Positions 6,660 to 34,718 of a DNA stretch of 64,000 nt are shown here, piece after piece; the first letter of the stretch is position 1, and each line of letters begins with the position of its first letter. The translations under genes were made by a program, and so were the position numbers. The stretch covers positions 1-64,000 of the forward strand of contig CBDAOB010000002.1 of NCBI GenBank assembly GCA_965197905.1. The letters are read 5' to 3'. Source of the DNA: Candidatus Latescibacterota bacterium (GTDB taxonomy: Bacteria > Latescibacterota > UBA2968 > UBA8231). The notes beneath the pieces were generated by a model. That model did no database searches and had not been told where the DNA came from. It saw nothing but the letters and a program-made list of their open reading frames with translations.

Positions 6660-7494
6660 GCATAACGTCTCGCGGGTTTGCGAACCGCGAAGCGGTTGCC
6701 GAAGGCCAAGGCGCGTAGCGACGCAGGTAGGGTCGAGAACTGGCGCGCCAGCCTTAGGGTTCGGTGGGTTCCCCATGGCTTTCGCCATAGCCCTCAGTCC
6801 GACTCCCATCGCTACGTTTCCAGTTCCCGCCGCCTCAAACCGGACGTGCGGATCTCCCGCATCCGGCTTCCCGACGAACGTCACATCCAGGCACACGCCA
6901 CAAGGACTTCACCTGGTAGTCAAGCTGCTTCCGATGCATACTAGTCTTACTGCTGGAGGCAATAGGCTCACGCCACTCTCCAACCCTCTGCACTTCCGCA
7001 GCATGTCCGAAGTCAGGCCCCTTCCCTCCACCGGAGTTACCCGGCTTCCTCGGTACTACGCGCCTGTCCGCCACCTCATCCAGCCCAGTCTGGCCCTCGC
7101 GGGTTACCGGTTGGAGGCACTCGCTGCTTCCACCGGATGAGGCTTCCCGTGTTGCGCCACATCTCCTCTTACACACATGCTGTCGCCACTACCCCGGCGG
7201 AACAGCTGGGTGCGCTTGTCGCTCGACTTCCCCAGCTGCAGCGGCCTTCCCTGGTTTACGGGCAGGTCGGCTTCCGCATTACACTTTTCGAGGCCTGCTC
7301 AGCGTTTACTCACGTTACGGCCTGTGTGCTCGCCAAGTCGCCCAAGGCGACCCTCTACACCGGAGGCTTCAGCGGCTTCGTCGCCTCCACCACTGCTCCG
7401 ATTGCTACCGGCTGGAGCGACCCTTGCCGGGTGGGATTCGCACCCACTGAAGATGTGCGCCTTAGCACGGCGCACCGCAAACGGGTTGTTACCC
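6660..7494 (-). other. attC site interrupted by ORF-less intron copy 1
   Basis: GTTTGCG...CAG|intron|CGCAAAC GGGTT GTTACCC. Confidence 0.9.
6727..7475 (-). mobile_element. ORF-less group II intron, copy 1 (749 nt)
   Basis: Minus strand starts GTGCGCCGTG, domain V GAAGCCGGATGCGGGAGATCCGCACGTCCGGTTT (6870-6837), ends CGACCCTAC. Confidence 0.93.
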
Positions 7495-7574
7495 GAAGTA
7501 TACCCCGTTCAAGAAGTAGCCCGACATTCCAGGCATTACTTTGTCCGCTCTCGATGCGAATGATACGAATTGCG

Positions 7575-7894
7575 TCATCTAGCCGCTTTGACAGGGGTGC
7601 TAAATTTGATCCTGACCTTGGATAAAACTACGAGGATCTTGTAGTCAACTGTAGTATCGGGATAAACTTGAACGATCTTGTAGTCGATGGAGGAATCCGG
7701 CTTAACGACGCTTATAGAATAGCAACGCCCGATTCAGGCACATGTAGTCGAGGCAGTTGTTTCAAAGCATGCTCAACCCTTTCTACTGAGGCGGAGTCAC
7801 CTTGAACGACGAGGGGTAACGGAGCTTCAGTTGGCTCGCCACAGCCACTGACGGAAATTGCCCCTATAGTTAGCATCCGAATTGCTCTTCTCAT
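7575..7894 (-). pseudogene. Small putative lipoprotein, probably frameshifted near 7712
   Basis: Lipobox-like VSGC; shifted frame continues with repeated PDxxxDYKI. Confidence 0.4.
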
Positions 7895-7919
7895 TGTCGT
7901 TTCAATCTTCTCATATTTC

Positions 7920-8767
7920 GGGTAACGCCTCGCCGGTTTACGAACCCCGAGCTTACCGAGGGGTTGCCCGAAGGGCCCAGGCGGCACAGCCGTCGCAGGT
8001 AGGGTCGAGAACTGGCGCGCCAGCCTTAGGGTTCGGTGGGTTCCCCATGGCTTTCGCCATAGCCCTCAGTCCGACTCCCATCGCTACGTTTCCAGTTCCC
8101 GCCGCCTCAAACCGGACGTGCGGATCTCCCGCATCCGGCTTCCCGACGAACGTCACATCCAGGCACACGCCACAAGGACTTCACCTGGTAGTCAAGCTGC
8201 TTCCGATGCATACTAAGTCTTACTGCTGGAGGCAATAGGCTCACGCCACTCTCCAACCCTCTGCACTTCCGCAGCATGTCCGAAGTCAGGCCCCTTCCCT
8301 CCACCGGAGTTACCCGGCTTCCTCGGTACTACGCGCCTGTCCGCCACCTCATCCAGCCCAGTCTGGCCCTCGCGGGTTACCGGTTGGAGGCACTCGCTGC
8401 TTCCACCGGATGAGGCTTCCCGTGTTGCGCCACATCTCCTCTTACACACATGCTGTCGCCACTACCCCGGCGGAACAGCTGGGTGCGCTTGTCGCTCGAC
8501 TTCCCCAGCTGCAGCGGCCTTCCCTGGTTTACGGGCAGGTCGGCTTCCGCATTACACTTTTCGAGGCCTGCTCAGCGTTTACTCACGTTACGGCCTGTGT
8601 GCTCGCCAAGTCGCCCAAGGCGACCCTCTACACCGGAGGCTTCAGCGGCTTCGTCGCCTCCACCACTGCTCCGATTGCTACCGGCTGGAGCGACCCTTGC
8701 CGGGTGGGATTCGCACCACTGAAGATGTGCGCCTTAGCACGGCGCACCGAAAACCGCTGTGTTACAA
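7920..8767 (-). other. attC site interrupted by intron copy 2
   Basis: GGGTAAC...GGTTTACG...CAG|intron|CGAAAACC...GTTACAA. Confidence 0.88.
7999..8747 (-). mobile_element. ORF-less group II intron, copy 2 (749 nt; one 1-nt insertion and one 1-nt deletion vs others)
   Basis: Same sequence as copy 1 except TACTAAGTCT (~8214) and GCACCACT (~8716). Confidence 0.93.
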
Positions 8768-8800
8768 GAAGTGCACGAACATCAAAACACGCTCCTAACC

Positions 8801-9439
8801 TTACCGGTTACTCGGCTTGACCGTTGAGTAGAGCAACGTTGGCGGTTCTTCCTTGACCATTCTATCAAGTAAATCAAAAGTGTTGCAGAATTCCCTGAGA
8901 GCCTCCTCGCAAAGAACAGCCTCTCCCCGTGTGTGCGCCGCTTTTTCAACCTCAACAAGAACGGGCCATTTCAACTCCGAGCATTCCATGACCTTCACAT
9001 CAAGTCCCAAGGGATCAAACGCTCCGACGTGATCATCGCCGCTAAATGACATGAAGGGATCATATCCCAAATAGCGCAGCTCAGTATCAAGCTCCCGCGT
9101 TGACACAGCTTCTTTGTTGCATTCGAGGCGTCGCAGAATGGGGCTCGCTATGGCGCCGTTCGTTACTTCCTCACCGAGTTCCTGGCGGATATTGGCGAAT
9201 TCACCAACATCAGGGCCCTTCCAAGCTAGGGACCATCTTGTTTTTTCATCCAACAGGACCTTGCTAATCCGCAGTAGCTGACCCGACTTAAATAGTGCCA
9301 GTCCATAGATCGTCGTCTCCCATTGACCCGAATGCCACATTTTGGAGCGGAGAAACGGCAAACGACAGAGCACCTCCTTGCGGTCCTGAAAATGAAATCG
9401 AACCTCAACTTCGAACGGGATTTGCGAAGCTGACTCCAA
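8801..9439 (-). CDS. CYTH-like domain protein
   Basis: N-terminal FEVEVRF, LLRI, KGP, VEVEK. Confidence 0.6.
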   Translation of the reverse strand: MESASQIPFEVEVRFHFQDRKEVLCRLPFLRSKMWHSGQWETTIYGLALFKSGQLLRISKVLLDEKTRWSLAWKGPDVGEFANIRQELGEEVTNGAIASPILRRLECNKEAVSTRELDTELRYLGYDPFMSFSGDDHVGAFDPLGLDVKVMECSELKWPVLVEVEKAAHTRGEAVLCEEALREFCNTFDLLDRMVKEEPPTLLYSTVKPSNR

Positions 9440-9493
9440 GGCTCAGTATCCTCCACCAGATTGTCGAATAGCCCATCGCATTGATTGCATTTC

Positions 9494-9584
9494 TTGTAAT
9501 GTTTTCACAATTCACGAAGCCGCGAAGGCGGCTTGCCGAAGGCCCAGCGCCGAATGGCGCGCAGCGGGAATTGCTGTGTTATAT
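9494..9584 (-). other. attC site with mutated R' core (AAT instead of AAC on + strand)
   Basis: TTGTAAT...CAATTCACG...CGGGAATTG...GTTATAT. Confidence 0.8.
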
Positions 9585-9613
9585 GACGTGGGCCCAGTTC
9601 ACTATCTTAGTGT

Positions 9614-10690
9614 TCAATTTTCGTTGGCAGTTTTCGCAAAAGCAGCGACTATCTCGGGAAAGAAGCTCCTAAGTGTGGGGTACTTTGACCGATTGGCTTC
9701 GTAGGCCAGCAGCTGGGAATGGACAGCATCAATGTATTTGAAACCTCTCTCCTTTTCGGCCTCAAGCGCGTTCTTTCCAGCGTTCGGACCCATTTCGGAA
9801 TGGAACAGCCGACTGGTAATGGCCCTGATTACGTGCTCGTTGACGCTGGTTTGCCAGTCCATGTAACCTCCAGCGCTGACCATCTGATCGGCTATAGGTG
9901 CGTACAATGCCGAGAATTCGTTGACACTCTTGAGGTTTTCGGCAGTGATGTGATCGACGAACGAGTGAGCGAACTCATGCCAAAGAACGTCCTGAAGCCG
10001 CGCAAGGTCGCCGAAGTCGGGGACGCCCTTGCTTTCCCCAACAGGGCCGATAATGCTGAAAACGTCAGTTACTCCTTTGTCTCGTACGATGCTGGGCCCA
10101 AAGCCGCCGTGATGTAAAAGTGGTCCGAGGATGATGTGATAGTCGCCTTGTTTCTCCCCGACGTATTCCTCCAGCGCCGCCATATAGTCTGTGTCGCCGA
10201 GCTGTCGTAGGGTTTTGGACCGAAGCGTCTCGTAATAGTCGGCGTTGGCATCATAAAAGGCCATGAAATCTGAGACTTGGGCGAAGTCGCGCAACCCCTC
10301 CACGAACCCAATGATATTGATGTCGCCACCAAAAGCTCGGGTTATATAGTCCTCAATGGCGTCATCGATGATCGGACTCTCGAAGTTTAGGGCGGGAGGT
10401 TGAGACAGATGGATGATGACGATCGCATAGGCATCGGAGGCGAGTGCCCTCGCCATGATCCCTCTGAGGAACTTGACGGCGTGATGATCCTTGTGATCGG
10501 CGAAGTGGTCGAGAATCTCTTGTTTGTATTGGATGTCGTAATTGGTCAAACCTTGGTGATCAGCCAACACTCCGACGACCGTGAGAAGCTCAATACGTGG
10601 ATCAACCGTTACACTGAACCTGAGTTCGGCCGCAGCGCTGCTGCCGCCTTGAGTGAGTAGAAAGATTGCCAGGATCGTCGCGTTTCTCAT
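9614..10690 (-). CDS. Secreted DUF4932-like zincin-motif protein
   Basis: Signal peptide, VDPRIELL, WHEFAHSFV, VNEHVIRA. Confidence 0.7.
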   Translation of the reverse strand: MRNATILAIFLLTQGGSSAAAELRFSVTVDPRIELLTVVGVLADHQGLTNYDIQYKQEILDHFADHKDHHAVKFLRGIMARALASDAYAIVIIHLSQPPALNFESPIIDDAIEDYITRAFGGDINIIGFVEGLRDFAQVSDFMAFYDANADYYETLRSKTLRQLGDTDYMAALEEYVGEKQGDYHIILGPLLHHGGFGPSIVRDKGVTDVFSIIGPVGESKGVPDFGDLARLQDVLWHEFAHSFVDHITAENLKSVNEFSALYAPIADQMVSAGGYMDWQTSVNEHVIRAITSRLFHSEMGPNAGKNALEAEKERGFKYIDAVHSQLLAYEANRSKYPTLRSFFPEIVAAFAKTANEN

Positions 10691-10713
10691 CTCAAACGTC
10701 CTTTTTCCATGTC

Positions 10714-10803
10714 ATATAACGTTTCGCCAGTTACCGAACTCGCGACGCGAGTTGTCGGAGACCAAGGCAGCGTAGCTGCCGCAGCGGTAACAGGTTGTTA
10801 TGT
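10714..10803 (-). other. attC site (family A)
   Basis: ATATAAC...GTTACCG...CGGTAAC...GTTATGT. Confidence 0.9.
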
Positions 10804-10821
10804 GACGAATGATTACTCACG

Positions 10822-11289
10822 TCAGTTAACCGGTGCTCCACATTCCAGATATGCGATCTTCGCGGTCTCCCGTGCCTCCACAGCCGCTTTTAGTCGGCCC
10901 TCGTAGTAAGGTGCCAACAAGGATAGTGCTGAATCCAATGGCAAAAACCGGTGTTCCGAGATCTCATCTGAGGGAAGTTCGATTGCGTCTACCTGCTCTT
11001 TAGCAAGGGAGCCACCCCAGAAGAGAAATACCAGCGCATCTTCCTTCTTGGTCGCCGCTACGCCAGCAGCTTCTGCTTGTTTTCCTTCCCCCCAGGAATC
11101 GACACACAGAAGTTCACGAACATCTAGCGAAAGCCCGGTCTCTTCCTGAATCTCTCTGATGCAAGCCCGTAGGGGGGACTCACCTTAATCAACATGCCCG
11201 CCTGGAAGCAGCCAGTAGTCGCGGTACGTCGGCTTCAGGATCAGCAGGTGGTTCTCAAATTCAATGACAGCTCCGGCGGAAACTATCAT
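10822..11289 (-). pseudogene. NUDIX hydrolase with in-frame stop inside the Nudix box (not in ORF track)
   Basis: MIVSAGAVI...WLLPGGHVD*GESPLRACIREIQEETGL; TAA at 11187-11185. Confidence 0.8.
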
Positions 11290-11349
11290 GAAGCAACCTT
11301 CAAGACCATCCTGTAACGCCCGTAACAACAGTTACCATTAGCATTTGTC

Positions 11350-12189
11350 ACATAACGTTTTGCCGGTTTACGAACTCACGAAGTGGGTTGCCGAAGGCCA
11401 AGGCGGCATCGGCGCCGCAGGTAGGGTCGAGAACTGGCGCGCCAGCCTTAGGGTTCGGTGGGTTCCCCATGGCTTTCGCCATAGCCCTCAGTCCGACTCC
11501 CATCGCTACGTTTCCAGTTCCCGCCGCCTCAAACCGGACGTGCGGATCTCCCGCATCCGGCTTCCCGACGAACGTCACATCCAGGCACACGCCACAAGGA
11601 CTTCACCTGGTAGTCAAGCTGCTTCCGATGCATACTAGTCTTACTGCTGGAGGCAATAGGCTCACGCCACTCTCCAACCCTCTGCACTTCCGCAGCATGT
11701 CCGAAGTCAGGCCCCTTCCCTCCACCGGAGTTACCCGGCTTCCTCGGTACTACGCGCCTGTCCGCCACCTCATCCAGCCCAGTCTGGCCCTCGCGGGTTA
11801 CCGGTTGGAGGCACTCGCTGCTTCCACCGGATGAGGCTTCCCGTGTTGCGCCACATCTCCTCTTACACACATGCTGTCGCCACTACCCCGGCGGAACAGC
11901 TGGGTGCGCTTGTCGCTCGACTTCCCCAGCTGCAGCGGCCTTCCCTGGTTTACGGGCAGGTCGGCTTCCGCATTACACTTTTCGAGGCCTGCTCAGCGTT
12001 TACTCACGTTACGGCCTGTGTGCTCGCCAAGTCGCCCAAGGCGACCCTCTACACCGGAGGCTTCAGCGGCTTCGTCGCCTCCACCACTGCTCCGATTGCT
12101 ACCGGCTGGAGCGACCCTTGCCGGGTGGGATTCGCACCCACTGAAGATGTGCGCCTTAGCACGGCGCACCGTGAACAGTGTTGTTACAA
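11350..12189 (-). other. attC site interrupted by intron copy 3
   Basis: ACATAAC...GTTTACG...CAG|intron|CGTGAAC...GTTACAA. Confidence 0.9.
11421..12169 (-). mobile_element. ORF-less group II intron, copy 3 (749 nt)
   Basis: Same sequence and ends as copy 1. Confidence 0.93.
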
Positions 12190-12195
12190 GAAGTG

Positions 12196-12621
12196 TCACG
12201 CGCTCAATGCCAGAGTCTCGTTTTGCAACCACCCACCAATGACTTTGGCCAGGCCGACGTCGTGCCGTTTGAATCCCATGCTCTCATAGACGTCAGGAAG
12301 ATCGGAAAACAGATGCACATGCTGTCCATCAAACTTCGAAACGACGATTTCCATCATGCGGGTAGCAACCCCTCGCCTCCGAAATGCCGACAGCGTCCAG
12401 ACATCCACGACGTATGCATTACAGACACCGTCCGAAAGTGCTCTCACTGTGCCAATTATGCGACCCTCAACGTACGCGATACAGTACGAGTGGCTGTTCT
12501 CGAATGAGCACCGAAGTTGTCCCGCTGTCCGTCCGTTGTCGAACTTGTCTTGGGAGAAAGTCTGCTTCATTTCAACCCAATCGACGCCGTGGAGATCCGT
12601 TTTATAGGTAACTTCCATCAT
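12196..12621 (-). CDS. GNAT N-acetyltransferase
   Basis: IIGTVRALSDG, VWT...FRRRGVATRMM, YESMGF. Confidence 0.85.
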   Translation of the reverse strand: MMEVTYKTDLHGVDWVEMKQTFSQDKFDNGRTAGQLRCSFENSHSYCIAYVEGRIIGTVRALSDGVCNAYVVDVWTLSAFRRRGVATRMMEIVVSKFDGQHVHLFSDLPDVYESMGFKRHDVGLAKVIGGWLQNETLALSA

Positions 12622-12653
12622 CGCAATTTCCCCGTGGAGTTAGAATACATTTC

Positions 12654-12731
12654 TTGTAACGAGAAAGAGTGCCCGAACCGGCGCAGCCGGTTTCCCCGGA
12701 GCGAAGCGGAGGCGGGCACTCGGTGTTGGGC
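12654..12731 (-). other. attC site (family B variant)
   Basis: TTGTAAC...GAGTGCCCG...CGGGCACTC GGT GTTGGGC. Confidence 0.85.
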
Positions 12732-12765
12732 GCTGTGCCAGTTTTGGAATCTTCGCACCTTCCCT

Positions 12766-13221
12766 TTAGGTCGAAGAGGGGCGCATCCGGGTCTGCAGTG
12801 GTTCTTCCATGGGTTCGGAGTCCCACCACCCCATAAACTTGGGGATTCCATCATGTAGATCTAACATGGCTTCATCGCAGTGAATATGGTAGCTACCTTC
12901 GTGAACTAAGCCCGAAACGGTTAGTAGGGCGGCATAAACTACGGTATGCTCACTGCCTGGACGATTCATCAAGCCCGATCCACAATGCCGACACCAATGT
13001 CGGTTACTAATTCCACTTCGGTAATTTTAAATCAACTCTTCTCCCTGAACGACGTGTACGGCTTCGTTCGGCCAAACAGCCGTGGCGTTGATTGGCGCCG
13101 CATGCCATGTTCGGCAGGTTTTACAATGACAATATCCAGCCCTGACCGGTGGACCCTCCACTCGAATCTTGACCTGACCGCAGAGACAGCTCCCTTCATA
13201 TTTCACAGCATCAGATGACAT
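12766..13221 (-). pseudogene. GFA/Mss4-like Zn protein with premature stop at 13029-13027
   Basis: GSCLCG, CHCKTC, then * then RHWCRHCGS in the same frame. Confidence 0.8.
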
Positions 13222-13285
13222 TATCTCTTCTCCTTAAGAATACACCGACAGAATAGCGTTGTTTTTTGGGGCGCTTAGGCATTGC

Positions 13286-13360
13286 GCCTAACGTTTCACC
13301 GGTTGACGAACCGACAGGCCAAGGTGCGCCAGCACCGCAGCGGCAAACGTGTTGTTAGGC
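13286..13360 (-). other. attC site (family A, first internal hairpin deleted)
   Basis: GCCTAAC...CGGCAAAC...GTTAGGC. Confidence 0.8.
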
Positions 13361-13373
13361 GAAGGAGAACACA

Positions 13374-14057
13374 TCAATATCCACTCAAAGGGCGTTCCCA
13401 TCTGTGATATGTACCATGAACCGTCGCGTTGGTCCGCAGATCAGATGCCAGTCCGTCGCCGCAAGAATCTGCCACAAAAGCACCAGCGTTCAATCTTCCC
13501 TCTTTGGCGGTTCTGTCTTGGGCACATTGGACCACCGCCCGCTGTCCTGAAATGCCTAGTGTCTCGAGGCCTTCGAGCCAAAGACCCCGATAAGTGAATG
13601 TGTCAACTGGAATAATCTCGGCTTCTTGTGGTTGGTCGGTAGCACCATTGGCGAACACAGGTTCCCATAGAAGCAAAGTTCGTCTTAGAGAATCGGTCTC
13701 GAAACCTGCTCTAGAAAAAGCGCGTTGACTTGCTAGGTTGTCAGTTCGAATCGATGCCCCCGCGAGGGAAGCACCGAGTTGTTCACCGTACAACAGTGCT
13801 TCCTTGACTAGGTGGGTTCCGATGCCCATTCCTTGCTCTGCCGGTCTTACGGCGACTAGGTCCAATTCGAATCGCGGATTCGCGCCAGATATTGTGAAAG
13901 CTGAGACAAACCCCGTAATCTCCGCATCGATAGCGACTAGCGTGACGTGCGAACTCGACGACAGATGATCGACGAAAACGTGCCCAAGAAGAGACTCTTG
14001 CCAAACGTCGCCCAGGATGCCGTCGGCGTCGTCAGTAGTTGCAGGTCGAATCAACAA
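13374..14057 (-). CDS. GNAT N-acetyltransferase
   Basis: LIRPAT, VAVRPAEQGMGIG, NLASQRAFSRAGF; TTG start at 14057 after GAAGGGA (the longer ORF-track start lies inside the IS). Confidence 0.8.
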   Translation of the reverse strand: MLIRPATTDDADGILGDVWQESLLGHVFVDHLSSSSHVTLVAIDAEITGFVSAFTISGANPRFELDLVAVRPAEQGMGIGTHLVKEALLYGEQLGASLAGASIRTDNLASQRAFSRAGFETDSLRRTLLLWEPVFANGATDQPQEAEIIPVDTFTYRGLWLEGLETLGISGQRAVVQCAQDRTAKEGRLNAGAFVADSCGDGLASDLRTNATVHGTYHRWERPLSGY

Positions 14058-14094
14058 ACGCTGTCCCTTCACTTTCGGCTTGTATCTTGAAAAT

Positions 14095-14295
14095 CGACTC
14101 CGTTTGATCACATGATCAGTTACATTGGCGAGTATTTGCTGGGGAGGCCGTTTTCGGTTTGAGGCTATGACCTCGCACGTTAGGTAGGCCCCCCACCTCC
14201 GCTGTTAATACCGAGGAAAACCCGAGACGGTCGAGTCTGTATTCTGCAAGCTCGGCAAGCACGGATAGTGGTGGGAGACCAGCAGCCAATATATC
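14095..14295 (+). ncRNA. Putative bridge RNA of the IS110 element
   Basis: Target loop TTTTCGGTT (14151-59)/ACGTTAG (14177-83); donor loop GAAAACCC (14216-23)/TGCAAG (14245-50); ends approximate. Confidence 0.8.
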
Positions 14296-14302
14296 ACGGG
14301 GG

Positions 14303-15313
14303 GTGAACATGCACCAAGAAAATCTAGTCGGCATTGACGTCAGTGCCGCCACGCTGGACGCCGTGCGCAGAGACCGGCGAGGCCAGTTGCTCAATGCAGC
14401 CTTCAGCAACGATACTAGCGGCCACAAGAAGCTCATCAGCTGGGCTACCAGGCGAGGATCAACGGCCCGCATTTGTATAGAAGCTACCGGTGTTTACAGC
14501 TTTCAGCTAGCTATGGCGCTTCATCAACACCCGAAAACAGAGGTCATGGTCGTCAACCCTCGGGCCATCAAGTCCTTCGGCCAAGCGCTCATGCAACGGG
14601 CCAAAATCGATCTAGTGGACGCCGAAGTAATCCTGGCCTTTGTCGAACGCATGGCCTTTGCATCTTGGCACCCGCCACCCGAAGAGGTCCTGCAGTTACA
14701 GTCACTCTCAAGGCGCATTGAGCAGGTGAAGGTGATGCTTAACCAGGAACTCAACCGTCGTCACGCTTATCAATTCCGTGCTGCTGTGGCAAAGTGGGTG
14801 CTCCAAGACATCGAGGTAAACATCCGGCATCTAAGGCGTCGTATAGCTCGTTTGGAAACGCACGGCCTGGAACTGATCGCAGCCAAACCTGAGCTCCAGG
14901 GCGCTTTTCAACGACTGGTCTCCATCAAAGGCGTAGCAGCTATCAGCGCGATGCGGATTTTGGCTGAACTGCTAACCCTCCCACCTGACCTGAAGCCATC
15001 GCAATGGGTCGCTCAGGCCGGTCTCGATCCGCGTGCAAGAGAGTCAGGGGCTTCCGTCCATGGACGTCGGTTTATCTCAAGGACAGGCAACAAACATCTG
15101 CGCCACGCCCTCTACATGCCCGCACTCGTGGCCTTACGACACGAACCACATGTGAAGGCCTTTTATGAAAAACTATTGGCCGCTGGCAAGAGACCCATGC
15201 AGGCAGTGGTGGCCGTGATGCGAAAATTGCTACGATCTATATGGGGTATGCTGAACTACAATCAGGATTTTGAGGACGAAAGATTCTACGAGATTCACAA
15301 GAAAGCAGCTTGA
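14303..15313 (+). CDS. IS110-family DEDD recombinase
   Basis: VGIDVS, IEATG, AKIDLVDA, SIKGVA, AGLDP...ESG, GNKHLRHALYMPA. Confidence 0.93.
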   Translation: MNMHQENLVGIDVSAATLDAVRRDRRGQLLNAAFSNDTSGHKKLISWATRRGSTARICIEATGVYSFQLAMALHQHPKTEVMVVNPRAIKSFGQALMQRAKIDLVDAEVILAFVERMAFASWHPPPEEVLQLQSLSRRIEQVKVMLNQELNRRHAYQFRAAVAKWVLQDIEVNIRHLRRRIARLETHGLELIAAKPELQGAFQRLVSIKGVAAISAMRILAELLTLPPDLKPSQWVAQAGLDPRARESGASVHGRRFISRTGNKHLRHALYMPALVALRHEPHVKAFYEKLLAAGKRPMQAVVAVMRKLLRSIWGMLNYNQDFEDERFYEIHKKAA

Positions 15314-15326
15314 CGGGGAAGAGAAA

Positions 15327-26378: not shown

Positions 26379-27608
26379 TCAAGCGAAAACGGGTTCGGTT
26401 GGTTCTTGCCGTGCGATGTTCAGCAGGTGATAGGTTTCATCGTACGGGACCGCGTCGCGCCACATGAAGTAAATAATCTTAAGCCATTTCGATCCCAACG
26501 CCCTTAAGGCCCGTTGGTGACTCCGTCCTAGGTTTCGTTGTCGTTCATAGTAGGCTCTTGCCCATTCGCTGCTTCTCAAGGAAATCATGGCTATCCAGTT
26601 TATGGCATAGCGCATCACCTTGTTGCAGGCATAGCGAAACTGGACCCGTTCATATTTGCCGCTTTTCTGCGTCACCGGCGTGGTGCCCGCCTGCGCTTGC
26701 AGATGGCGGAACGAGGTCCAACGTTCAGGCGCATCGCCTAATTCAGCCAAAAGAGTCGGAAGGATCGTTCCCGACTTCCCGCCGGGCAAACTCATGGCCC
26801 ATTGGGAAGATGGCAGATCTGCAAATGCTTGTTCGATTTCCCGTTTATACGTTTTGATGGCGGCAGCCTGAGTCTGTAATTGTGCCACCAACACCAGCAT
26901 CATTCTCGACCGAGCCCGCACAACGTGATGAGGAATGGCAATCTGCGGGCTATGGAGAAGGTCCCATAGCTGGGCCGTTCGTGCCGCATTCAAGCGGTGG
27001 CTCCGAGCAAAGTCCTGCCACTGTTGTTTGGTCAGCCGTTTCAGCTCACCAGGCGTAGGATACGCCTGCAGGAAATCAAGGGCCGTCCCACTGGCCATTT
27101 CCTCATAGGCCTCGAGGGAGCGGGGATAATATTCTTTCAACGTAGCCTTTAGTTGATTGATCCATCGCGTCTGCTGACGTACCAACTTTTGATAGTCTCG
27201 TGTCAGCATTTTCAGCTCGGCAGCTGCCGACGAGTTGGGCGTTAGCGGATGAAGATGGTTATGGTCTGTGCGGAGAAATTCCGCCAATACACACGCATCA
27301 AACGGATCGCTCTTAGACCGACTCACCCGGAAGCGATCTCGAGCCCGATCCAAGGCCTTGGGATTGATCGGATAAACCAAAACATCGTGATCTAACAAGA
27401 AGTCGATCATCCGTCCCTCGGGTTTCTCAATGGCAGCCCACAACAAAATCCCCTCAGCTCGACACTCGTATAACCACCGGCCGAATTCACTTAGGCTTTC
27501 CGACGTGTTACTTATCACCCGCTGAGTAATCCGCTTGCCGTTGTCCTCAACGACACAAACATCATGCGTCTGGTCGGACCAATCTACTCCCAAAATGTAG
27601 TGCTGCAT
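26379..27608 (-). CDS. IS110-family DEDD recombinase
   Basis: LGVDWS, AIEKP, SKSDPFDA, SLPG, AGTTPVTQKSGK. Confidence 0.93.
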   Translation of the reverse strand: MQHYILGVDWSDQTHDVCVVEDNGKRITQRVISNTSESLSEFGRWLYECRAEGILLWAAIEKPEGRMIDFLLDHDVLVYPINPKALDRARDRFRVSRSKSDPFDACVLAEFLRTDHNHLHPLTPNSSAAAELKMLTRDYQKLVRQQTRWINQLKATLKEYYPRSLEAYEEMASGTALDFLQAYPTPGELKRLTKQQWQDFARSHRLNAARTAQLWDLLHSPQIAIPHHVVRARSRMMLVLVAQLQTQAAAIKTYKREIEQAFADLPSSQWAMSLPGGKSGTILPTLLAELGDAPERWTSFRHLQAQAGTTPVTQKSGKYERVQFRYACNKVMRYAINWIAMISLRSSEWARAYYERQRNLGRSHQRALRALGSKWLKIIYFMWRDAVPYDETYHLLNIARQEPTEPVFA

Positions 27609-27624
27609 CCAAATCTCCTTCTTG

Positions 27625-27845
27625 CTTTCATCAAGAAGCTCGACCGGAAAGGTTGGCCTTATATCGGTCCTCGGAGGGACGACTTCCTATTGAACCTTTC
27701 AACTCCGATCTCAATGCCGGGCGGGACAGTCTTGGCCAGATCCTCAGCGGGATGAGGCGCGAATGGTCCTCTACCCAGAATGCTCCTCAAATAGATTCAG
27801 TGTCGATTCAACGATACTGAATCGCAAGAAACATTTCCCCTTGCG
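27625..27845 (-). ncRNA. Putative bridge RNA
   Basis: Minus strand: target guides CGCGCCT (27761-55)/GGCCAAG (27737-31); donor guides ATAGGAAGTC (27690-81)/GATATAAG (27665-58); ends approximate. Confidence 0.85.
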
Positions 27846-27874
27846 GGTGATATAAGGCGCGGCTAGCGCCGCAG

Positions 27875-28623
27875 GTAGGGTCGAGAACTGGCGCGCCAGC
27901 CTTAGGGTTCGGTGGGTTCCCCATGGCTTTCGCCATAGCCCTCAGTCCGACTCCCATCGCTACGTTTCCAGTTCCCGCCGCCTCAAACCGGACGTGCGGA
28001 TCTCCCGCATCCGGCTTCCCGACGAACGTCACATCCAGGCACACGCCACAAGGACTTCACCTGGTAGTCAAGCTGCTTCCGATGCATACTAGTCTTACTG
28101 CTGGAGGCAATAGGCTCACGCCACTCTCCAACCCTCTGCACTTCCGCAGCATGTCCGAAGTCAGGCCCCTTCCCTCCACCGGAGTTACCCGGCTTCCTCG
28201 GTACTACGCGCCTGTCCGCCACCTCATCCAGCCCAGTCTGGCCCTCGCGGGTTACCGGTTGGAGGCACTCGCTGCTTCCACCGGATGAGGCTTCCCGTGT
28301 TGCGCCACATCTCCTCTTACACACATGCTGTCGCCACTACCCCGGCGGAACAGCTGGGTGCGCTTGTCGCTCGACTTCCCCAGCTGCAGCGGCCTTCCCT
28401 GGTTTACGGGCAGGTCGGCTTCCGCATTACACTTTTCGAGGCCTGCTCAGCGTTTACTCACGTTACGGCCTGTGTGCTCGCCAAGTCGCCCAAGGCGACC
28501 CTCTACACCGGAGGCTTCAGCGGCTTCGTCGCCTCCACCACTGCTCCGATTGCTACCGGCTGGAGCGACCCTTGCCGGGTGGGATTCGCACCCACTGAAG
28601 ATGTGCGCCTTAGCACGGCGCAC
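27875..28623 (-). mobile_element. ORF-less group II intron, copy 4 (749 nt)
   Basis: Same sequence and ends as copy 1. Confidence 0.93.
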
Positions 28624-28653
28624 CGAAAACCGGGTGTTATGAGAAGTGTCTAC

Positions 28654-29610
28654 CTACGCAAATTGCTTGTAGTCTATGTCTACAAGTGCCACTTCATTCT
28701 CGATAGCATTTTGATACCGGTTGAGAAGAATTCGTTTATGTAAAGAGATCTGACTCATGTCCCACTCTAAGAAAGCGTCGATGAACGACATCACCTCACG
28801 CAGTTTGACAAAGATTGGTAGTCTTTCAATCCACACAGAGGAGAGATCTCGGTACTCCGCGTAACCTTCTAGGAGACTCCCAACGAATGCCTCGGCGTAC
28901 CCATTGACATCCGTACCATTGAAGGAAATATCTACCGCGAAGTTGATTAGAACTCCAAGATCGTGTGCAAAGAAGTGAAGTTCACATTCATCGGTGTCAA
29001 AAAACGTGACTTGGTTGTTGTGTACGTGGATGTTGCAAGGTCCGATGTCTCCATGGATGAGACCGTAGCATCCGGCGTCTTCCTGATAGGAGCGTACGAG
29101 ATGGACGACCTCTGAGCACTTGGCCCGAGCGACACTGAACCTTTCGGGAATGCGTTGAACGTCGTAGATGTCTGCTTCATGCCAGTGTGTGCGTTGCAGA
29201 GCTGGGTACTCAATATGGAACTTCTGAGTTGCGCGGTGCATCCTTCCGATCTGCTGCCCAAGTTGCTTGAACAGATTACGATCCCACTCCGCATTCGTGG
29301 GTGGTGCACCTTCCGCCCGCTCTAGACTGACTACCAGAAACTGCTCGCCTCCCGCGCAGATTTCCTCAACTAACTCCCCGTTGACCGAAGGAACGGCTCG
29401 GACGATCCTCACGCCATCGCTTGCCAGGTAATTGATCCACGACACTTCGGTCGTCTGCTCTGCATAACTTGGCTCCTGCAGTACTCTGGCGACAAAATCT
29501 CCTCCGTCGTTCGTGTACGGGTAGAAATACTGATTGAGGCTCCGTATTTGATTGGGTTTCACATCGAATAGCTCTGAAATGCTATCGACGATCTGCTTCT
29601 GCATACTCAA
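28654..29610 (-). CDS. APH/choline-kinase-family phosphotransferase
   Basis: IGRMH, YGLIHGDI...N, FFDTDEC. Confidence 0.85.
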   Translation of the reverse strand: MSMQKQIVDSISELFDVKPNQIRSLNQYFYPYTNDGGDFVARVLQEPSYAEQTTEVSWINYLASDGVRIVRAVPSVNGELVEEICAGGEQFLVVSLERAEGAPPTNAEWDRNLFKQLGQQIGRMHRATQKFHIEYPALQRTHWHEADIYDVQRIPERFSVARAKCSEVVHLVRSYQEDAGCYGLIHGDIGPCNIHVHNNQVTFFDTDECELHFFAHDLGVLINFAVDISFNGTDVNGYAEAFVGSLLEGYAEYRDLSSVWIERLPIFVKLREVMSFIDAFLEWDMSQISLHKRILLNRYQNAIENEVALVDIDYKQFA

Positions 29611-29653
29611 ATCCAGGCTATTTAGATCTACGCCCTAGTGCTTTGGGCATTTC

Positions 29654-29738
29654 TCATAACGTTCTCGCCGTGCCCGAACCGCGAAGCGGTTGCAGCGAAG
29701 GCGCGCAGACGCCGAAGCCGGGCACGGACGTGTTAACG
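29654..29738 (-). other. attC site (family B)
   Basis: TCATAAC...GTTAACG. Confidence 0.9.
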
Positions 29739-29772
29739 GCTGTGGGCAGATCTCTCTGTTGGAGCCAACAAC

Positions 29773-30294
29773 TCAGATTGATGCGCAATACTTATCCAGC
29801 GCAGACCTGTCAGCCTCGAAACCCAATTCAGTTCGGTTCAGCTTCTCAGGGTGAGCGAGGAAGAAATGATCAATGTCGTCGTTTGCCTGCGCTTCCGTGA
29901 GATCCACGCCCTTAACGACGAAGTACGCGACCGAGGTGAAGTACTGGACATCTCTGTACAAATACGTGCTTCCGAAGGAAGTCAAATATTGGAGATCTTG
30001 TACATGGACGCCTAATTCCTCTTGCAATTCGCGGACCAGAGTGTCTTCGAGGCTCTCCCGATATTGAACGAAACCGCCAGGTAGGGCCAGCGTCCCCTTC
30101 TTAGGTTCGTTTGCCCTTCGTGTAATGACTATCCGATCCCCGCTCTCAATGATGCCAACCGCGGAGGCAAGAGGGCCATGATAGTAGACATATCCACAGG
30201 ACGTGCATGTCAGGCTGGCGTTGTCGCCTTGTTGGATTCTACTTGCTCCGCAACTTGGGCAAAACTCAAAGCCTGTCAGCTCGCGTACATCCAT
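29773..30294 (-). CDS. NUDIX hydrolase with N-terminal Zn ribbon
   Basis: FCPSCG...CTSCG; LPGGFV..RESLEDTLVRELQEELG. Confidence 0.9.
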   Translation of the reverse strand: MDVRELTGFEFCPSCGASRIQQGDNASLTCTSCGYVYYHGPLASAVGIIESGDRIVITRRANEPKKGTLALPGGFVQYRESLEDTLVRELQEELGVHVQDLQYLTSFGSTYLYRDVQYFTSVAYFVVKGVDLTEAQANDDIDHFFLAHPEKLNRTELGFEADRSALDKYCASI

Positions 30295-30327
30295 AGGACT
30301 TGCTGCCTTGGCTCAAGGTCCCATTGC

Positions 30328-30410
30328 CGTTAACGTTCTCGCCGTGCCCGAACCGCGAATGCGGTTGCGCGAAGGGCGAATGCCCGAAGCCGGGCACGGG
30401 GGTGTTAACT
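30328..30410 (-). other. attC site (family B)
   Basis: CGTTAAC...GTTAACT. Confidence 0.9.
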
Positions 30411-30434
30411 GCCGTTACCTTTATGTTCCCATTT

Positions 30435-31343
30435 CTAAATCGACATAGCTCTACGAATTTCAATGGATCGAGTTGTGTGACTACCACGTCCCAATTCCGT
30501 CTGATGGAATGGTTTGGGACGAGATCCATCTATGTCTTCAAAACCATATTCCTGGGCTAATTCACCAACAACCAAAATCTGTCCGGTCTTTTTCAGGATC
30601 TCGGGATCGGCTGCCAATGCACGTATGGCTCGCCCCGTGTACTGTGGCGACTCTGTAAAGGGCAACTTTTCTTTGAAGATGTACTTCATCACACCCTCGG
30701 TTCGCACATAGCCGGGCCAAAGCGAAATACATGCTACACCATATTCCTTAAACGCAGCTGCCATCTCAATCGCCAATTTATCTGTTGCCAACTTTGAAAC
30801 GAGATAGTAGACGTCGCCTGGGCCTTGTTGTGAACTATAATTGGAAATATTGACGATCAATCCACTACCTGTATGTATCATGAGCGGTGCGGCGTAGGTA
30901 CTGGCGACATAATGCGACCGAAGCCCTACGTTGTGTGTCGCATCCCATTGTTCGATAGGGTGTTCCCAGAATGGACCTGAGTAGTACACGTCTCTATGGG
31001 CATTTTCATACCCCGACCAAACATTGTTCACGAGGATGTCTATGTGACCTTGCTCGTCCTCAACGCGTTTGAATACGGCCTTCACCTGATCGTCTTTTCG
31101 GTGATCACACCGGCAGGGAATACCTTTTCCTCCCAAGCGCGACACTTCGCGGGCCGTGCCCGTCAGAGTCCCGGTCACAGGAACGGTCTGGTCGCCTGAT
31201 TTCATGGTGCGACCGGTGATATAGACAGTGGCGCCAGCTTCCCCCAAGGCCAATGCCACTCCTTTGCCAACGCCTCGACTGGCCCCGGTCACTACGGCGA
31301 TCTTGCCTGCTAGTGGCAGTTCGCCTGTTCGACTCTTTGGCAT
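30435..31343 (-). CDS. SDR oxidoreductase (DHRS1-like)
   Basis: TGASRGVG, VYITGR, LVNN, YLVSK, ESPQYTGR. Confidence 0.9.
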   Translation of the reverse strand: MPKSRTGELPLAGKIAVVTGASRGVGKGVALALGEAGATVYITGRTMKSGDQTVPVTGTLTGTAREVSRLGGKGIPCRCDHRKDDQVKAVFKRVEDEQGHIDILVNNVWSGYENAHRDVYYSGPFWEHPIEQWDATHNVGLRSHYVASTYAAPLMIHTGSGLIVNISNYSSQQGPGDVYYLVSKLATDKLAIEMAAAFKEYGVACISLWPGYVRTEGVMKYIFKEKLPFTESPQYTGRAIRALAADPEILKKTGQILVVGELAQEYGFEDIDGSRPKPFHQTELGRGSHTTRSIEIRRAMSI

Positions 31344-31419
31344 GATTTTGTCTCCGATTTAGCAGCGATCATGGGTGAACGGAGAAACGGAAAGATCGCA
31401 TCATACCCCACGCAATGGC

Positions 31420-31504
31420 AGTTAACGTTCTCGCCGTGCCCGAACCGCGAATGCGGTTGCGCGAAGGCGCCTCAGCGCCGAAGCCGGGCACGGACGTGTT
31501 ACCC
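31420..31504 (-). other. attC site (family B)
   Basis: AGTTAAC...GTTACCC. Confidence 0.9.
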
Positions 31505-31558
31505 GACGTGCACATCATCCCGCCAGGAAACATCTAGAGTGTTTTAAAGCGATGTCTA

Positions 31559-32722
31559 TTAGGATCTGTCGACAAGAGCCAGCGCCGCCTCAATGCTGGC
31601 GATTGCCTCACGATCCGCCTTCAATGCGTCACCGATCAATTTGCCCGCCGCGGCGCGGTCTTCCAACGTAAAACCGTTGACCTTTTCCGCGGTGCTACAG
31701 AGACCATACAATGGATTCAGCGCCTCAAGCTCAAGATCGTAGTGAACAGCCGCCGCCTCGAGTGGCTCAGCTGCTACGGGGAAAAGGGTGACGAGTTCCC
31801 TCAGGTATGCGGCTGCTGTCAAACGTCTCGCTCTCAGTATTTCCGCGTGATGATGGGAATGTCCGGGCGAAACGTCTTCCGACTCAAACGCTTCACGCCA
31901 GAGTTCGTAAGCGGCAAAACCGTAGGGGATGCTTCGCTTTCCGTTGTGTCGAATGAAGCGTTCATCAGTGTATCTGGTGCCGTTCGCGAAGGCGACCGCG
32001 TTCCGGAGTGCCGTTAATTGCGTCGCCTTCTCGTCAGCGTTGCTCGGCTGATCGTAGATCGTGACATTGAACCACTCGACGCCATCGGAGTGTCCGATGG
32101 CGTCGTAACGAACGGTGTAAGTGTCACCTACGAACGGGTGACGAATCGTGTACGTCTCCTCAGCTTGGTTGTACCCAACGATCAGGCCCCAGCAGTACGC
32201 GTGGTGTGCCGGGTGATCGCTTGCTTTCTGTTCCAGACTCATCGGCTGCCACACCATCGCCGGGACGCCCTGTTGCAAGCTCGCCCGCACGGCTTCCCTG
32301 GCTTCTCGCTTCAGTGCTGGGAGATCGATGTCGGTATCGTGCTTCGTCGCTTGGAACGTGCGAAACTGTGCCATATTGGGGAGGAAATCGAGCGCGAGCC
32401 CCCAGTCTATGTTGTCGTGCATGACTCCCTTGCCTCCCTCTACCATCTCAAAGTGGAAGGCATGTCCCATCACGCCCTGCAACCGTGCCATCGTCCATTC
32501 CGAGCGGCCGACGGTCTGCATCAGCGGGCGGAGGGAGGAGGCTAGGGTCGTCCCCGAGTGTGGTCTGGACGGGTTGACATCTACCATGACGTTCATCGCT
32601 TGGCCTCCTTCCGGCACAGCGTCGGTGTTGGTCTCCTTGGCCGAAGTTCGCTCGATGATAAGGGTTGTAAGGACGAGGGCAGCCGCGATTCGAGCCAGAT
32701 TGACCACGGTATAGTTTACCAT
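31559..32722 (-). CDS. Hypothetical protein (possible papain/BtrH-like fold)
   Basis: 387-aa ORF with RBS AAGGA; MGHAF, WGLIVGY, YGFAAYELW. Confidence 0.65.
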   Translation of the reverse strand: MVNYTVVNLARIAAALVLTTLIIERTSAKETNTDAVPEGGQAMNVMVDVNPSRPHSGTTLASSLRPLMQTVGRSEWTMARLQGVMGHAFHFEMVEGGKGVMHDNIDWGLALDFLPNMAQFRTFQATKHDTDIDLPALKREAREAVRASLQQGVPAMVWQPMSLEQKASDHPAHHAYCWGLIVGYNQAEETYTIRHPFVGDTYTVRYDAIGHSDGVEWFNVTIYDQPSNADEKATQLTALRNAVAFANGTRYTDERFIRHNGKRSIPYGFAAYELWREAFESEDVSPGHSHHHAEILRARRLTAAAYLRELVTLFPVAAEPLEAAAVHYDLELEALNPLYGLCSTAEKVNGFTLEDRAAAGKLIGDALKADREAIASIEAALALVDRS

Positions 32723-32754
32723 TTCGTCCTTCCTTTCTCTATCTGTTGCATGTC

Positions 32755-32844
32755 GGGTAACGTTATGCCTGTTGCCGAACTCGCGTAGAGAGTTGCCGAC
32801 AGGCCAAGGCGCGTATGCGCCGCAGCGGCAACAGGTTGTTAAAG
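32755..32844 (-). other. attC site (family A)
   Basis: GGGTAAC...GTTGCCG...CGGCAAC...GTTAAAG. Confidence 0.9.
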
Positions 32845-32872
32845 GACGTGGGATAGAAATTCACGGAGCAAG

Positions 32873-33748
32873 CTATCCCATTTCGCCGAGAGCGAACAAG
32901 GTAAGAGCAATCCCAAGATACCGGTCGCGAGTTTTGGCGTCTCTGGTCGTCCCAGTCGGCCAAAAACACGAATAGGCGGCGTAATCCGCTATTCTCGTAG
33001 AATCCACCTTCTTGTTCGGTCTGCTTGCTGCCGCAGATCTGATCGCTTCAGTGAAATATTCGTCACTCCATTCGCCGTATTTGGCTATGCCGCCCAAGAG
33101 ATCGCCGACATCTCTTTCAAATTGTCCCGGACCTATGCTCTCAAAGTCGGTCAGGGTGGTCTTCTCTCCGTCTAGTACGACTTGCCGTGGCGAAAGATCT
33201 CTGTGACACATGTCTGTGTATGCATCGTGGACATGGCTCTCTATGCGCGACAAGATACTTCCGCACTCCCTGGTCAGCGGAGCGAAACGAGCACACGTGT
33301 CGGTAAGCCGTTCAATATCCCGATCTCTAGTGGTCAGACCGTCTCTGATAACTCCGAAGTCGGAGTAATCTTGTTCGGCAAACCGAGTGAGTTCCTGGAT
33401 TGTCTGAAAAACTGCCTGCAACGACTTCGGTGAAACCACATCAAGCACTAGATCCGCAACGCTCTTACTACCACAATCCGACAGAATCAAATACGGAATA
33501 CCGGAAAGCTCTCCGTGAGCAATTATCTTCGCATGGTTTAGCGAGGACCGCTCAATGAGACGATATGCCTCGATTTCTCGGCGTAAACGGTACGGTCTTC
33601 GTGGATTTAGTTTTACGATATAAGTTTTGTTCTCACCGAATGCACGCCAGACAAAGTTGCTGTTCGGCGGCAAATGTTGCGCTTCGACTACACCGGAAAG
33701 GCACTTCGTACAGACGTTATCGACAACTGCCTGGTATTCTTCCAACAT
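32873..33748 (-). CDS. APH-family phosphotransferase
   Basis: YIVKL...RE, CHRDLSPRQV, LTDFES. Confidence 0.75.
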   Translation of the reverse strand: MLEEYQAVVDNVCTKCLSGVVEAQHLPPNSNFVWRAFGENKTYIVKLNPRRPYRLRREIEAYRLIERSSLNHAKIIAHGELSGIPYLILSDCGSKSVADLVLDVVSPKSLQAVFQTIQELTRFAEQDYSDFGVIRDGLTTRDRDIERLTDTCARFAPLTRECGSILSRIESHVHDAYTDMCHRDLSPRQVVLDGEKTTLTDFESIGPGQFERDVGDLLGGIAKYGEWSDEYFTEAIRSAAASRPNKKVDSTRIADYAAYSCFWPTGTTRDAKTRDRYLGIALTLFALGEMG

Positions 33749-33822
33749 TCAGAAAAGAGCGTTTGATGCCGAAAAAGTGTGATGACCCAATCTCATGTTA
33801 ATACGATCTCAATCCCATGTTC

Positions 33823-34718
33823 CTTTAACGTTTTTCGGCTTTACGACGTGGGCCTGATCCCGAATAGGGATTGGCGCGGCGGTTGCCAAAGGCAATCGCT
33901 GTGACAAAAGGCCCGTGTGCCCGTAGGGCCGAGGGGCGAATGCCCCGATGGTAGGGTCGAGAACTGGCGCGCCAGCCTTAGGGTTCGGTGGGTTCCCCAT
34001 GGCTTTCGCCATAGCCCTCAGTCCGACTCCCATCGCTACGTTTCCAGTTCCCGCCGCCTCAAACCGGACGTGCGGATCTCCCGCATCCGGCTTCCCGACG
34101 AACGTCACATCCAGGCACACGCCACAAGGACTTCACCTGGTAGTCAAGCTGCTTCCGATGCATACTAGTCTTACTGCTGGAGGCAATAGGCTCACGCCAC
34201 TCTCCAACCCTCTGCACTTCCGCAGCATGTCCGAAGTCAGGCCCCTTCCCTCCACCGGAGTTACCCGGCTTCCTCGGTACTACGCGCCTGTCCGCCACCT
34301 CATCCAGCCCAGTCTGGCCCTCGCGGGTTACCGGTTGGAGGCACTCGCTGCTTCCACCGGATGAGGCTTCCCGTGTTGCGCCACATCTCCTCTTACACAC
34401 ATGCTGTCGCCACTACCCCGGCGGAACAGCTGGGTGCGCTTGTCGCTCGACTTCCCCAGCTGCAGCGGCCTTCCCTGGTTTACGGGCAGGTCGGCTTCCG
34501 CATTACACTTTTCGAGGCCTGCTCAGCGTTTACTCACGTTACGGCCTGTGTGCTCGCCAAGTCGCCCAAGGCGACCCTCTACACCGGAGGCTTCAGCGGC
34601 TTCGTCGCCTCCACCACTGCTCCGATTGCTACCGGCTGGAGCGACCCTTGCCGGGTGGGATTCGCACCCACTGAAGATGTGCGCCTTAGCACGGCGCACC
34701 GTAAAACCGATGTTATAT
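33823..34718 (-). other. Long (147 bp net) divergent attC interrupted by intron copy 5
   Basis: CTTTAAC...CGGCTTTTACG...four hairpins...GATG|intron|CGTAAAACCG AT GTTATAT. Confidence 0.85.
33951..34699 (-). mobile_element. ORF-less group II intron, copy 5 (749 nt)
   Basis: Same sequence and ends as copy 1. Confidence 0.93.

Follow-up and report, generated by a model that had tools for sequence, protein, structure and literature searches.

Near-identical ORF-less, IIB-like group II introns in attC sites of a Latescibacterota cassette array

Class C (IIC) group II introns carry a CGC triad. Those associated with the attC sites of integrons, the IIC-attC introns, insert into the bottom strand, antisense to the cassettes, and encode their own reverse transcriptase (RT) (PMC3001079, PMC4424553). 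According to Sonbol & Siam 2021 (PMC7923331), only IIC introns had previously been linked to integrons; that study describes one RT-bearing CL1/IIB1 intron, UHB.I2, lying 'immediately after' an attC in sense orientation, as well as two class E fragments, H.ha.F1 and H.ha.F2, in a cluster of attC sites lacking integron-integrases (CALIN), both in halophiles, and it cites Rodriguez-Martinez 2012 for a top-strand IIC intron. A different reference point is provided by T. elongatus, where TeI3 introns without an open reading frame (ORF) are mobilised by TeI4 'driver' intron-encoded proteins (IEPs) (Mohr et al. 2010, PMC2882425). Bacterial introns lacking an ORF are described in reviews as rare and short-lived (PMC4424553, PMC3245105). 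Here we describe a 749-nt ORF-less group II intron present in multiple copies in a cassette array of Candidatus Latescibacterota bacterium (assembly GCA_965197905.1), within the first 64,000 nt of contig CBDAOB010000002.1, the whole stretch analysed and hereafter called the window. The element is real and recently active, and its specificity, as read from its exon-binding sequences, coincides with the R''-L'' half of one attC subfamily.

A repeat search, combined with alignment of the flanks, finds five copies of the element in the window, all on the minus strand: copy 1 at 6727-7475, copy 2 at 7999-8747, copy 3 at 11421-12169, copy 4 at 27875-28623 and copy 5 at 33951-34699. BLAST identity over the 749 nt is 100% in four of them and 99.7% in copy 2, which has lost one base from a G run and gained one T. 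Identical 749-nt copies in five different flanks cannot be the product of chance. Read 5' to 3', the element begins at its high coordinate with GTGCGCC (5' sequence GTGCGCCGTG) and ends at its low coordinate with CTCGACCCTAC. The cassette ORFs and the top strand of the attCs (R'' to R') share this minus strand, so that all copies are sense to the cassettes. The original prediction, made from the letters of the window, had located the five near-identical copies at these coordinates, with two 1-nt indels in copy 2, and had put them in the sense of the cassettes, on the inner side of an attC L'' arm; the repeat search, the flank and attC alignments, the BLAST comparison and the strands agree with it throughout.

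The attCs were detected by an inverted-repeat scan and then with an nhmmer profile built from 13 aligned window attCs and run on the intron-deleted genome. They conform to the imperfect palindrome R''(RYYYAAC)...L''...L'...R'(GTTRRRY) expected after cassette ORFs, and the profile recovers 53 attCs, of which 26 belong to the window array (5232-35555, minus strand), 20 lie on contig C3 at 289-363 kb, 5 on contig C1 and 2 are singles. The window array thus comprises 26 profile matches, three of them occupied by the intron, plus two atypical occupied sites, and all its cassette ORFs are on the minus strand. Copies 1, 2 and 3 lie within complete attCs. The remaining two of the five occupy partial or atypical ones: the degenerate attC around copy 4 matches the profile only in its R''-L''-first-hairpin half (positions 3-32, E 5.7e-5), and the long attC around copy 5 has a 3' half that weakly fits the profile (E 0.002) and ends near 33825.

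The position of the insertion is the same in all five. The window copies follow ...TAAC-N4-6-[GTTTGCG / GTTTTCG / GTTCACG / TTTTACG], a word composed of the R'' core (..TAAC), a spacer and the L'' arm of the attC, and C(T/A)(G/T)CG stands 3' of the intron; the insertion point is the exact boundary between the L'' arm and the attC central loop (GCTGCG...). In the attC split by copy 1, for example, the R''-L'' half occupies 7476-7494 (minus strand; GGGTAAC AACCC GTTTGCG), and the central part with the L'-R' half occupies 6660-6726 (minus strand; ...CGCAAACCCGCGAGACGTTATGC). The L' arm of occupied attCs is CGTAAAC or CGCAAAC, the same word as exon-binding site 1 (EBS1) of the intron, because both are complementary to L''. 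Empty window attCs have GTTTGCCG, GTTACCG or CCGTGCCCG at L'', all mismatched to EBS1.

By its sequence and comparative fold, the element is a genuine group II intron. The Rfam model RF02003 (group-II-D1D4-4) scores 106.8 bits in four copies and 98.7 bits in copy 2, for a gathering score of 49, and RF00029 (domains V/VI) scores 39.2 bits (E 6.6e-6), slightly below its gathering score of 40. The termini of all copies are GUGCG...AC, in keeping with the 5' GUGYG and 3' AY of group II introns. In copy 1, all of whose parts are on the minus strand, domain V (6838-6871) has 34 nt and an AGC triad, domain VI (6727-6835) is branched and about 105 nt long, and the ORF-free stub that stands for domain IV occupies 6878-7008 (intron nt 468-598). 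Alignment of the first 480 nt, covering domains I to III, with 34 relatives from other genomes gives a consensus fold in which 68 of the 117 predicted pairs show compensatory change on both sides (35 sequences). Among 57 distinct 3' ends of relatives, domain V is almost invariant and keeps its AGC, and the basal helix of domain VI covaries (GGGAACUGG/CCAGUUCUC, GGGAUGUGG/CCACAUCCC, GGGAGGUGG/CCACCUCUC). This helix extends to the 3' end of the intron and leaves one A unpaired at window position 6733, 7 nt from the splice site, which we infer to be the bulged A of domain VI. The Rfam alignment stops 33 nt before the 3' end, suggesting a 3' extension after domain VI as in B.c.I4; this candidate was ruled out by the comparative fold, which gives one long domain VI with its basal helix up to the 3' end. 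The long branched domain VI noticed in the original prediction is indeed present, though it is a trait of the whole lineage and not peculiar to the 749-nt element.

The exon-binding sequences were identified from 87 distinct introns of the lineage, each considered with its own flanks. Exon positions -1 to -5 covary with intron nt 216-220 (86-92% complementary, 5-6 pair types), which places EBS1 at nt 216-222 (CGUAAAC; 7254-7260 in copy 1), opposite the last 7 nt of the 5' exon, that is, the L'' arm of the attC. The first base of the 3' exon is 97% complementary to intron nt 287, with 6 pair types; G287 (7189 in copy 1), whose partner is C, is an EBS3 in domain I, of the IIB/IIC kind rather than the delta pair of IIA introns. 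A candidate EBS2 at nt 192-197 (GUGUAA; 7279-7284 in copy 1) would pair with exon positions -16 to -11 (TAACAN, the R'' core). Here the complementarity is 58%, for 47 +/- 1.9% with shuffled exons, and 0 of 1000 shuffles reach as high; in copy 1 this pairing has an A.A mismatch at exon -15, and variable spacing blurs the signal. No other intron column covaries with exon -8 to -20 in the 87 introns. An EBS2 at UGUU (nt 272-275) was rejected as a junction position beside a covarying helix.

Taken together, the AGC triad, the 7-bp covarying EBS1, the candidate EBS2 loop, the EBS3 in domain I and a ribozyme of about 620 nt outside domain IV indicate that the element is IIB-like and not IIC. The features of IIC-attC introns, namely a compact ribozyme with a short EBS1 and no EBS2 (in part after PMC4424553), antisense insertion into the bottom strand and an own class C RT, are not found. 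The original prediction of an ORF-less, non-IIC, IIB-type group II intron is thus upheld by the Rfam scores, domain V, the covarying helices and the ORF-free domain IV on the one hand, and by the triad, EBS1, EBS3 and ribozyme size on the other.

Genome-wide, BLAST finds 12 full copies and one truncated copy, all ORF-less and at least 99.7% identical; 11 of the 12 full-length copies are 100% or 99.9% identical. Seven of the 13 lie in complete or partial attCs. The others comprise four insertions into genes, all in sense orientation (in flgE between the D1 and D2 domains, C5:2488115; in an ankyrin-repeat gene, C3:919022; in a nuoH-like gene two codons before the stop, C1:64879; and in an FG-GAP repeat gene, C4:593542), one intergenic copy (C4:2028902) and one directly 5' of an RT-bearing relative (C3:1186425), where no spanning ORF was found. 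Removing the intron in silico rejoins flgE into one frame of 498 aa and the ankyrin gene into one of 670 aa, which confirms the intron boundaries to the base. In the FG-GAP host gene (copy C4:593542-594290, locus L003), the upstream frame ends 47 codons past the junction and another opens 11 codons before it, a frameshift, genuine or an assembly indel, that is near the insertion and not at it. On C3 there is also a 157-nt 3' fragment of a related intron (348603-348759, 85% identical) followed by the remainder of an attC, with no RT gene upstream.

When the exons of the 12 independent sites are joined and compared with the attC profile, four are complete attCs (E <= 2e-11), two are partial or atypical (window copies 4 and 5) and six are non-attC, one of these having a weak, chance-level attC match (E 0.25). 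All 12 nevertheless read ...(T/C)(A/G/C)AC(A/G)-N3-6-[GTTTACG or a one-off variant] | intron | C.... The motif TAACA-N3-6-IBS1+C, where IBS1 is the intron-binding site complementary to EBS1 (at most 1 mismatch, wobble allowed), has 18 matches in the genome, of which 8 are occupied, and at 0 mismatches three of four sites are occupied; as the motif was taken from occupied sites, the counts show how far such sites are filled and do not test the motif independently. Targeting is sequence-specific and not attC-exclusive. The location in attCs announced by the original prediction therefore holds for seven of the 13 copies and is not exclusive, with four copies in genes, one intergenic and one beside the RT-bearing relative. 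Copies at random non-attC sites, which it had named as evidence against itself, are not what we find, since the non-attC sites all keep the IBS motif.

These flanks bear on a first alternative, in which the copies would be immobile relics spread by DNA-level events, such as cassette duplication or IntI-mediated or homologous recombination, rather than by retrohoming. At least one copy did spread in this way: the truncated C3:359767-360466 repeats 70 nt or more of the sequence 5' of window copy 1 and is thus the product of a segmental duplication, and the array is rich in repeated attCs. The other 12 copies, however, have differing flanks on both sides and exact, identical boundaries; five lie away from any attC cluster, four of them within ordinary genes; every site carries EBS1/EBS3-complementary sequence; and an allele exists from which the intron is precisely absent. 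The alternative is largely refuted by these observations, and we regard it as hardly credible for the family as a whole.

The intron-less allele came from a comparison of contigs from public sequencing runs with the flgE locus. In run X1, contigs span both intron-exon junctions of flgE. In run X2, from another sample and study, a 1301-nt contig joins 1500 to 2250, skipping exactly 749 nt with the ends GT..AC. Whether this contig is an empty flgE DNA allele or a spliced transcript, both fit a young, precisely excisable element, which it supports. The recent spread put forward in the original prediction is consistent with this contig and with the near-identity of 11 of the 12 full-length copies. 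Two RNA libraries labelled sponge metagenome (X8 and X9) contain 580-603-nt contigs identical to intron nt ~52-638, none of them on flgE exons; these were rejected as proof of transcription or splicing, as RNA libraries may contain DNA.

In a tblastn search of the genome, the cognate RT is encoded at a single place, within a 1985-nt intron (C3:1187174-1189158). The RT has 441 aa, is intact, contains RVT_1 and GIIM (X/maturase) domains and a YADD motif, and has no endonuclease domain. Over nt 1-249, a stretch that includes EBS1 and EBS2, this intron and the ORF-less element share 97-100% identity, and over domain V they share 94%. One ORF-less copy ends at 1187173 and abuts the first base of this intron, as is expected of an insertion at its 5' exon junction, given that IBS1 and IBS2 lie in the 5' exon. 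The ORF-less copies outnumber the RT-bearing intron 13 to 1. By tblastn, the plasmid matches listed from Sinorhizobium, E. coli, Klebsiella, Bacillus and Enterococcus share at most 34% identity with the RT, and one Planctomyces plasmid gene shares 62%; its top matches among solved structures are IIC RTs (E 1e-45). Neither comparison places the RT in a named IEP class (A, B, D, E, F or CL). Relatives 55-83% identical occur in metagenome-assembled genomes (MAGs) labelled Latescibacterota, Planctomycetota, Acidobacteriota and others. From this sequence relationship, the C3 RT is the likely trans helper of the ORF-less intron. The original prediction of an RT supplied in trans thus finds a counterpart in a cognate RT-bearing intron of the same genome, which would act as the driver.

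Based on the above data, we propose that the element is a non-autonomous IIB-like intron that retrohomes by base pairing into attCs and look-alike sites, with the RT provided in trans by the C3 intron, a reading that we consider highly probable. The intron RNA would locate its DNA target by pairing EBS1 (CGUAAAC) with GTTTRCG and EBS3 (G287) with the C that follows, and the likely EBS2 would pair with TAACA about 4 nt upstream of IBS1. In this genus, these three motifs fall on the R'' core, the L'' arm and the first central-loop base of the top (cassette-sense) strand in one subfamily of the host's attCs, and it is because of this coincidence that retrohoming would be directed to attCs, now and then to look-alike sites in genes, and always in sense. 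Splicing and reverse transcription would be served by the RT of C3:1187174-1189158. If spliced in vivo, the intron would leave the array mRNA; in the DNA, 749 nt between L'' and L' would be expected, from attC geometry, to hamper folding of the attC and hence excision of the cassette.

Several observations weigh against this model. The statistical support for EBS2 is moderate only, and a perfect target in a truncated attC, at C3:295146, is empty. Run X2 is of unrecorded kind, so that its intron-less contig may come from DNA with an empty site or from spliced RNA. Between the helper and the element, identity falls to 78-86% in nt 250-467 and to 83% in nt 651-749, and the helper's domain IV and the stub are unrelated, so that their compatibility is an assumption of the model. 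Finally, the genome has a second RT family, whose 557-aa protein shares 32% identity with the helper RT and is encoded at 11 loci, one of which is split.

This second family offers another possible driver. Ten of its loci are intact-looking and 99.8-100% identical, so that the family is probably active, and 'driver' IEPs of relaxed specificity are known in T. elongatus (PMC2882425). The ORF-less intron might then be spliced and mobilised by the 557-aa RT, or might splice itself with no cognate protein, the C3 element being a bystander. We consider this improbable, as the two RTs are merely 32% identical, the ORF-less ribozyme resembles the C3 intron at 97-100% in nt 1-249 and 94% in domain V, and across the phylum ORF-less members match local RT-bearing introns of their own lineage at 94-97%.

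The retrohoming model with the C3 helper leaves the link with integrons to be weighed, since the association with attC could be incidental: the intron would recognise a 13-nt word that happens to be present in some attCs, with no adaptation to integrons. Relatives in other genera do use very different IBS1 words and non-attC sites, 6 of the 12 independent sites here are non-attC, and the upstream YTA[AG]C preference is lineage-wide, so that the resemblance to the R'' core may predate the link with integrons. Inspection by eye of ORF-less relatives from genus g22 found none in a recognisable attC. Set against this, the RT-bearing relatives L047 and L063 (from a Ca. Latescibacterota record, 82-83% identical) sit at the same attC position with a matching change in EBS1 (CGUGAAU / GTTCACG), and attCs provide many near-identical targets in non-essential DNA, a type of refuge known for mobile introns. 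A purely incidental association is, in our view, unlikely, although less so than the two alternatives above. A different sub-lineage is represented by three RT-bearing relatives in a Planctomycetota MAG (L049-L051), which lie in near-identical short palindromic flanks (TCTGAATCC...GGGATTCAGA); this suggests that it homes into a different repeated hairpin element.

The most unexpected part of our findings is the modular stub in domain IV. There is no ORF in domain IV of the 749-nt element, and the stub (nt 468-598) cannot be aligned to the helper or to any other RT-bearing relative. The peptide MHRKQLDYQVK, which the original prediction had considered a possible vestige of an RT, is not supported as such: 11 of the 12 aligned ORF-less relatives have neither its ATG nor its frame, and the region has no similarity to the RT gene or to RT-bearing introns. 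The stub is conserved as RNA, at 73-79% identity with five of the seven ORF-less relatives compared and 56-57% with the other two, these relatives coming from other genera of the same phylum (G052, G056, G111, G106, G105, G109 and locus L094). It folds into helices in which 8 of 48 pairs show compensatory changes (9 distinct sequences). In two of these genomes, the ORF-less introns L023 (G052) and L025 (G056) have several loops of domain I enlarged by inserts made up of GCCTGCCTG-type words and of the complements of these; the inserts bring L025 to 942 nt and have the appearance of a small palindromic repeat that is colonising the intron.

Of 168 genomes scanned from the phylum, 24 have matches at E <= 1e-20, with contiguous ORF-less forms listed in 8 genomes of one genus, 14 of whose 15 genomes matched. 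Outside the stub, each ORF-less intron is closer to an RT-bearing intron than to the other ORF-less introns; L130 and L131, for example, are 94-95% and 96-97% identical to the RT-bearing L086 on either side of the stub. In a tree of domains I to III (66 distinct introns), the ORF-less state requires at least 6 changes, at least 3 of them forced by well-supported branches, and the approximately unbiased (AU) test rejects a single ORF-less clade (delta lnL, the log-likelihood difference, 193; p 7.4e-6), for a group defined by length and stub and in a test run after the tree was seen. The simplest reading of these sequences is exchange between ORF-less and RT-bearing introns at the boundaries of domain IV. 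More tentatively, and as an idea that we would put at somewhat less than an even chance, the ~130-nt stub may be a structured RNA module that can pass from one intron to another and that marks a family of non-autonomous introns extending over the whole phylum. Recombination or template switching at the edges of domain IV would have moved it repeatedly onto the resident RT-bearing backbone, much as a short interspersed element (SINE) borrows from a long interspersed element (LINE), each parasite thus inheriting the protein compatibility and the target specificity of its helper. In this genus, the pair would have specialised on the top strand of attCs, and the multiple 749-nt inserts between L'' and L' might act as a brake on cassette excision in the chromosomal integron.

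Compared with the systems described previously, the element is a variant that joins two known kinds, attC-associated introns and trans-mobilised ORF-less introns. It shares with IIC-attC introns (the S.ma.I2 lineage) the repeated insertion into attCs and an RT without endonuclease domain, and differs from them in being IIB-like, ORF-less and inserted in sense into the top strand, where it would read its site by a 7-bp EBS1 and EBS3, probably with EBS2, at the boundary between L'' and the loop. With UHB.I2 it shares a non-IIC, IIB-like character and the cassette-sense orientation, and the RT of UHB.I2, like that of the helper, lacks an endonuclease domain. UHB.I2, however, is a single RT-encoding intron with poorly conserved exons and the H.ha elements are 5'-truncated fragments, whereas we find 13 ORF-less copies, a defined position within the attC, a covarying pairing and a separate helper; the element is thus set apart from them by description. 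The likeness to TeI3 lies in ORF-less introns more numerous than RT-bearing ones, good EBS/IBS pairing, related IEP genes resident in the same genome and insertion next to or into other introns. TeI3 introns, though, keep both ends of the ORF, N- and C-terminal, on the two sides of a single deletion and group as one clade in one genome; here a related IEP-bearing intron is likewise present in the genome, and in place of a simple ORF deletion with remnants there is no detectable ORF remnant, a stub common to several genera, polyphyletic backbones and attC targets. In the literature searched, IIB introns in integrons are in print only in Sonbol & Siam 2021, and we found no report of an ORF-less group II intron in an attC, subscription papers being outside the scope of this search. 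To call the element undescribed, a point that the original prediction had left unconfirmed, would be too strong, as IIB introns in sense orientation within integrons have been published (PMC7923331).

As for the surroundings of the array, an integron integrase remnant lies at 37154-37707 (minus strand) in cassette orientation, matching positions 1-148 of 315 of TIGR02249 (90.9 bits) with a short C-terminal piece. A complete integron integrase is found at C3:204281-205219 (366.7 bits; cut-off 265), about 85 kb from the second attC cluster. Just past the last attC of the array (5232-5319), a gene for a 555-aa serine beta-lactamase-family / DUF3471 protein occupies 3522-5189 (minus strand). A second, unrelated group II intron at about 300-2600 (plus strand), one of the 11 loci of the 557-aa RT family, with an RT ORF at 780-2453 (RVT_1, GIIM) and domain V/VI at 2481-2579, appears to interrupt an IS256/Mutator-family transposase gene, the C-terminal part of which lies at 2478-3296. 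At 42150-42449 and 42967-43266, an 86% identical 300-nt direct repeat lies in adjacent plus-strand ORFs of 243 aa and 256 aa, which are probably tandem paralogues.

Integron-targeting introns in print are almost synonymous with antisense IIC-attC elements, which block transcription of the array. A sense, base-pairing, ORF-less intron that multiplies in a cassette array represents a second, mechanistically different route by which retroelements exploit integrons. Such an intron could be spliced from the array transcript and yet lengthens the attC loop about 10-fold, which raises the question of whether intron occupancy freezes cassettes in place. Lastly, the shared domain IV module and its apparent recombination with local helpers bear on how non-autonomous introns evolve and come to share a trans-acting splicing apparatus.

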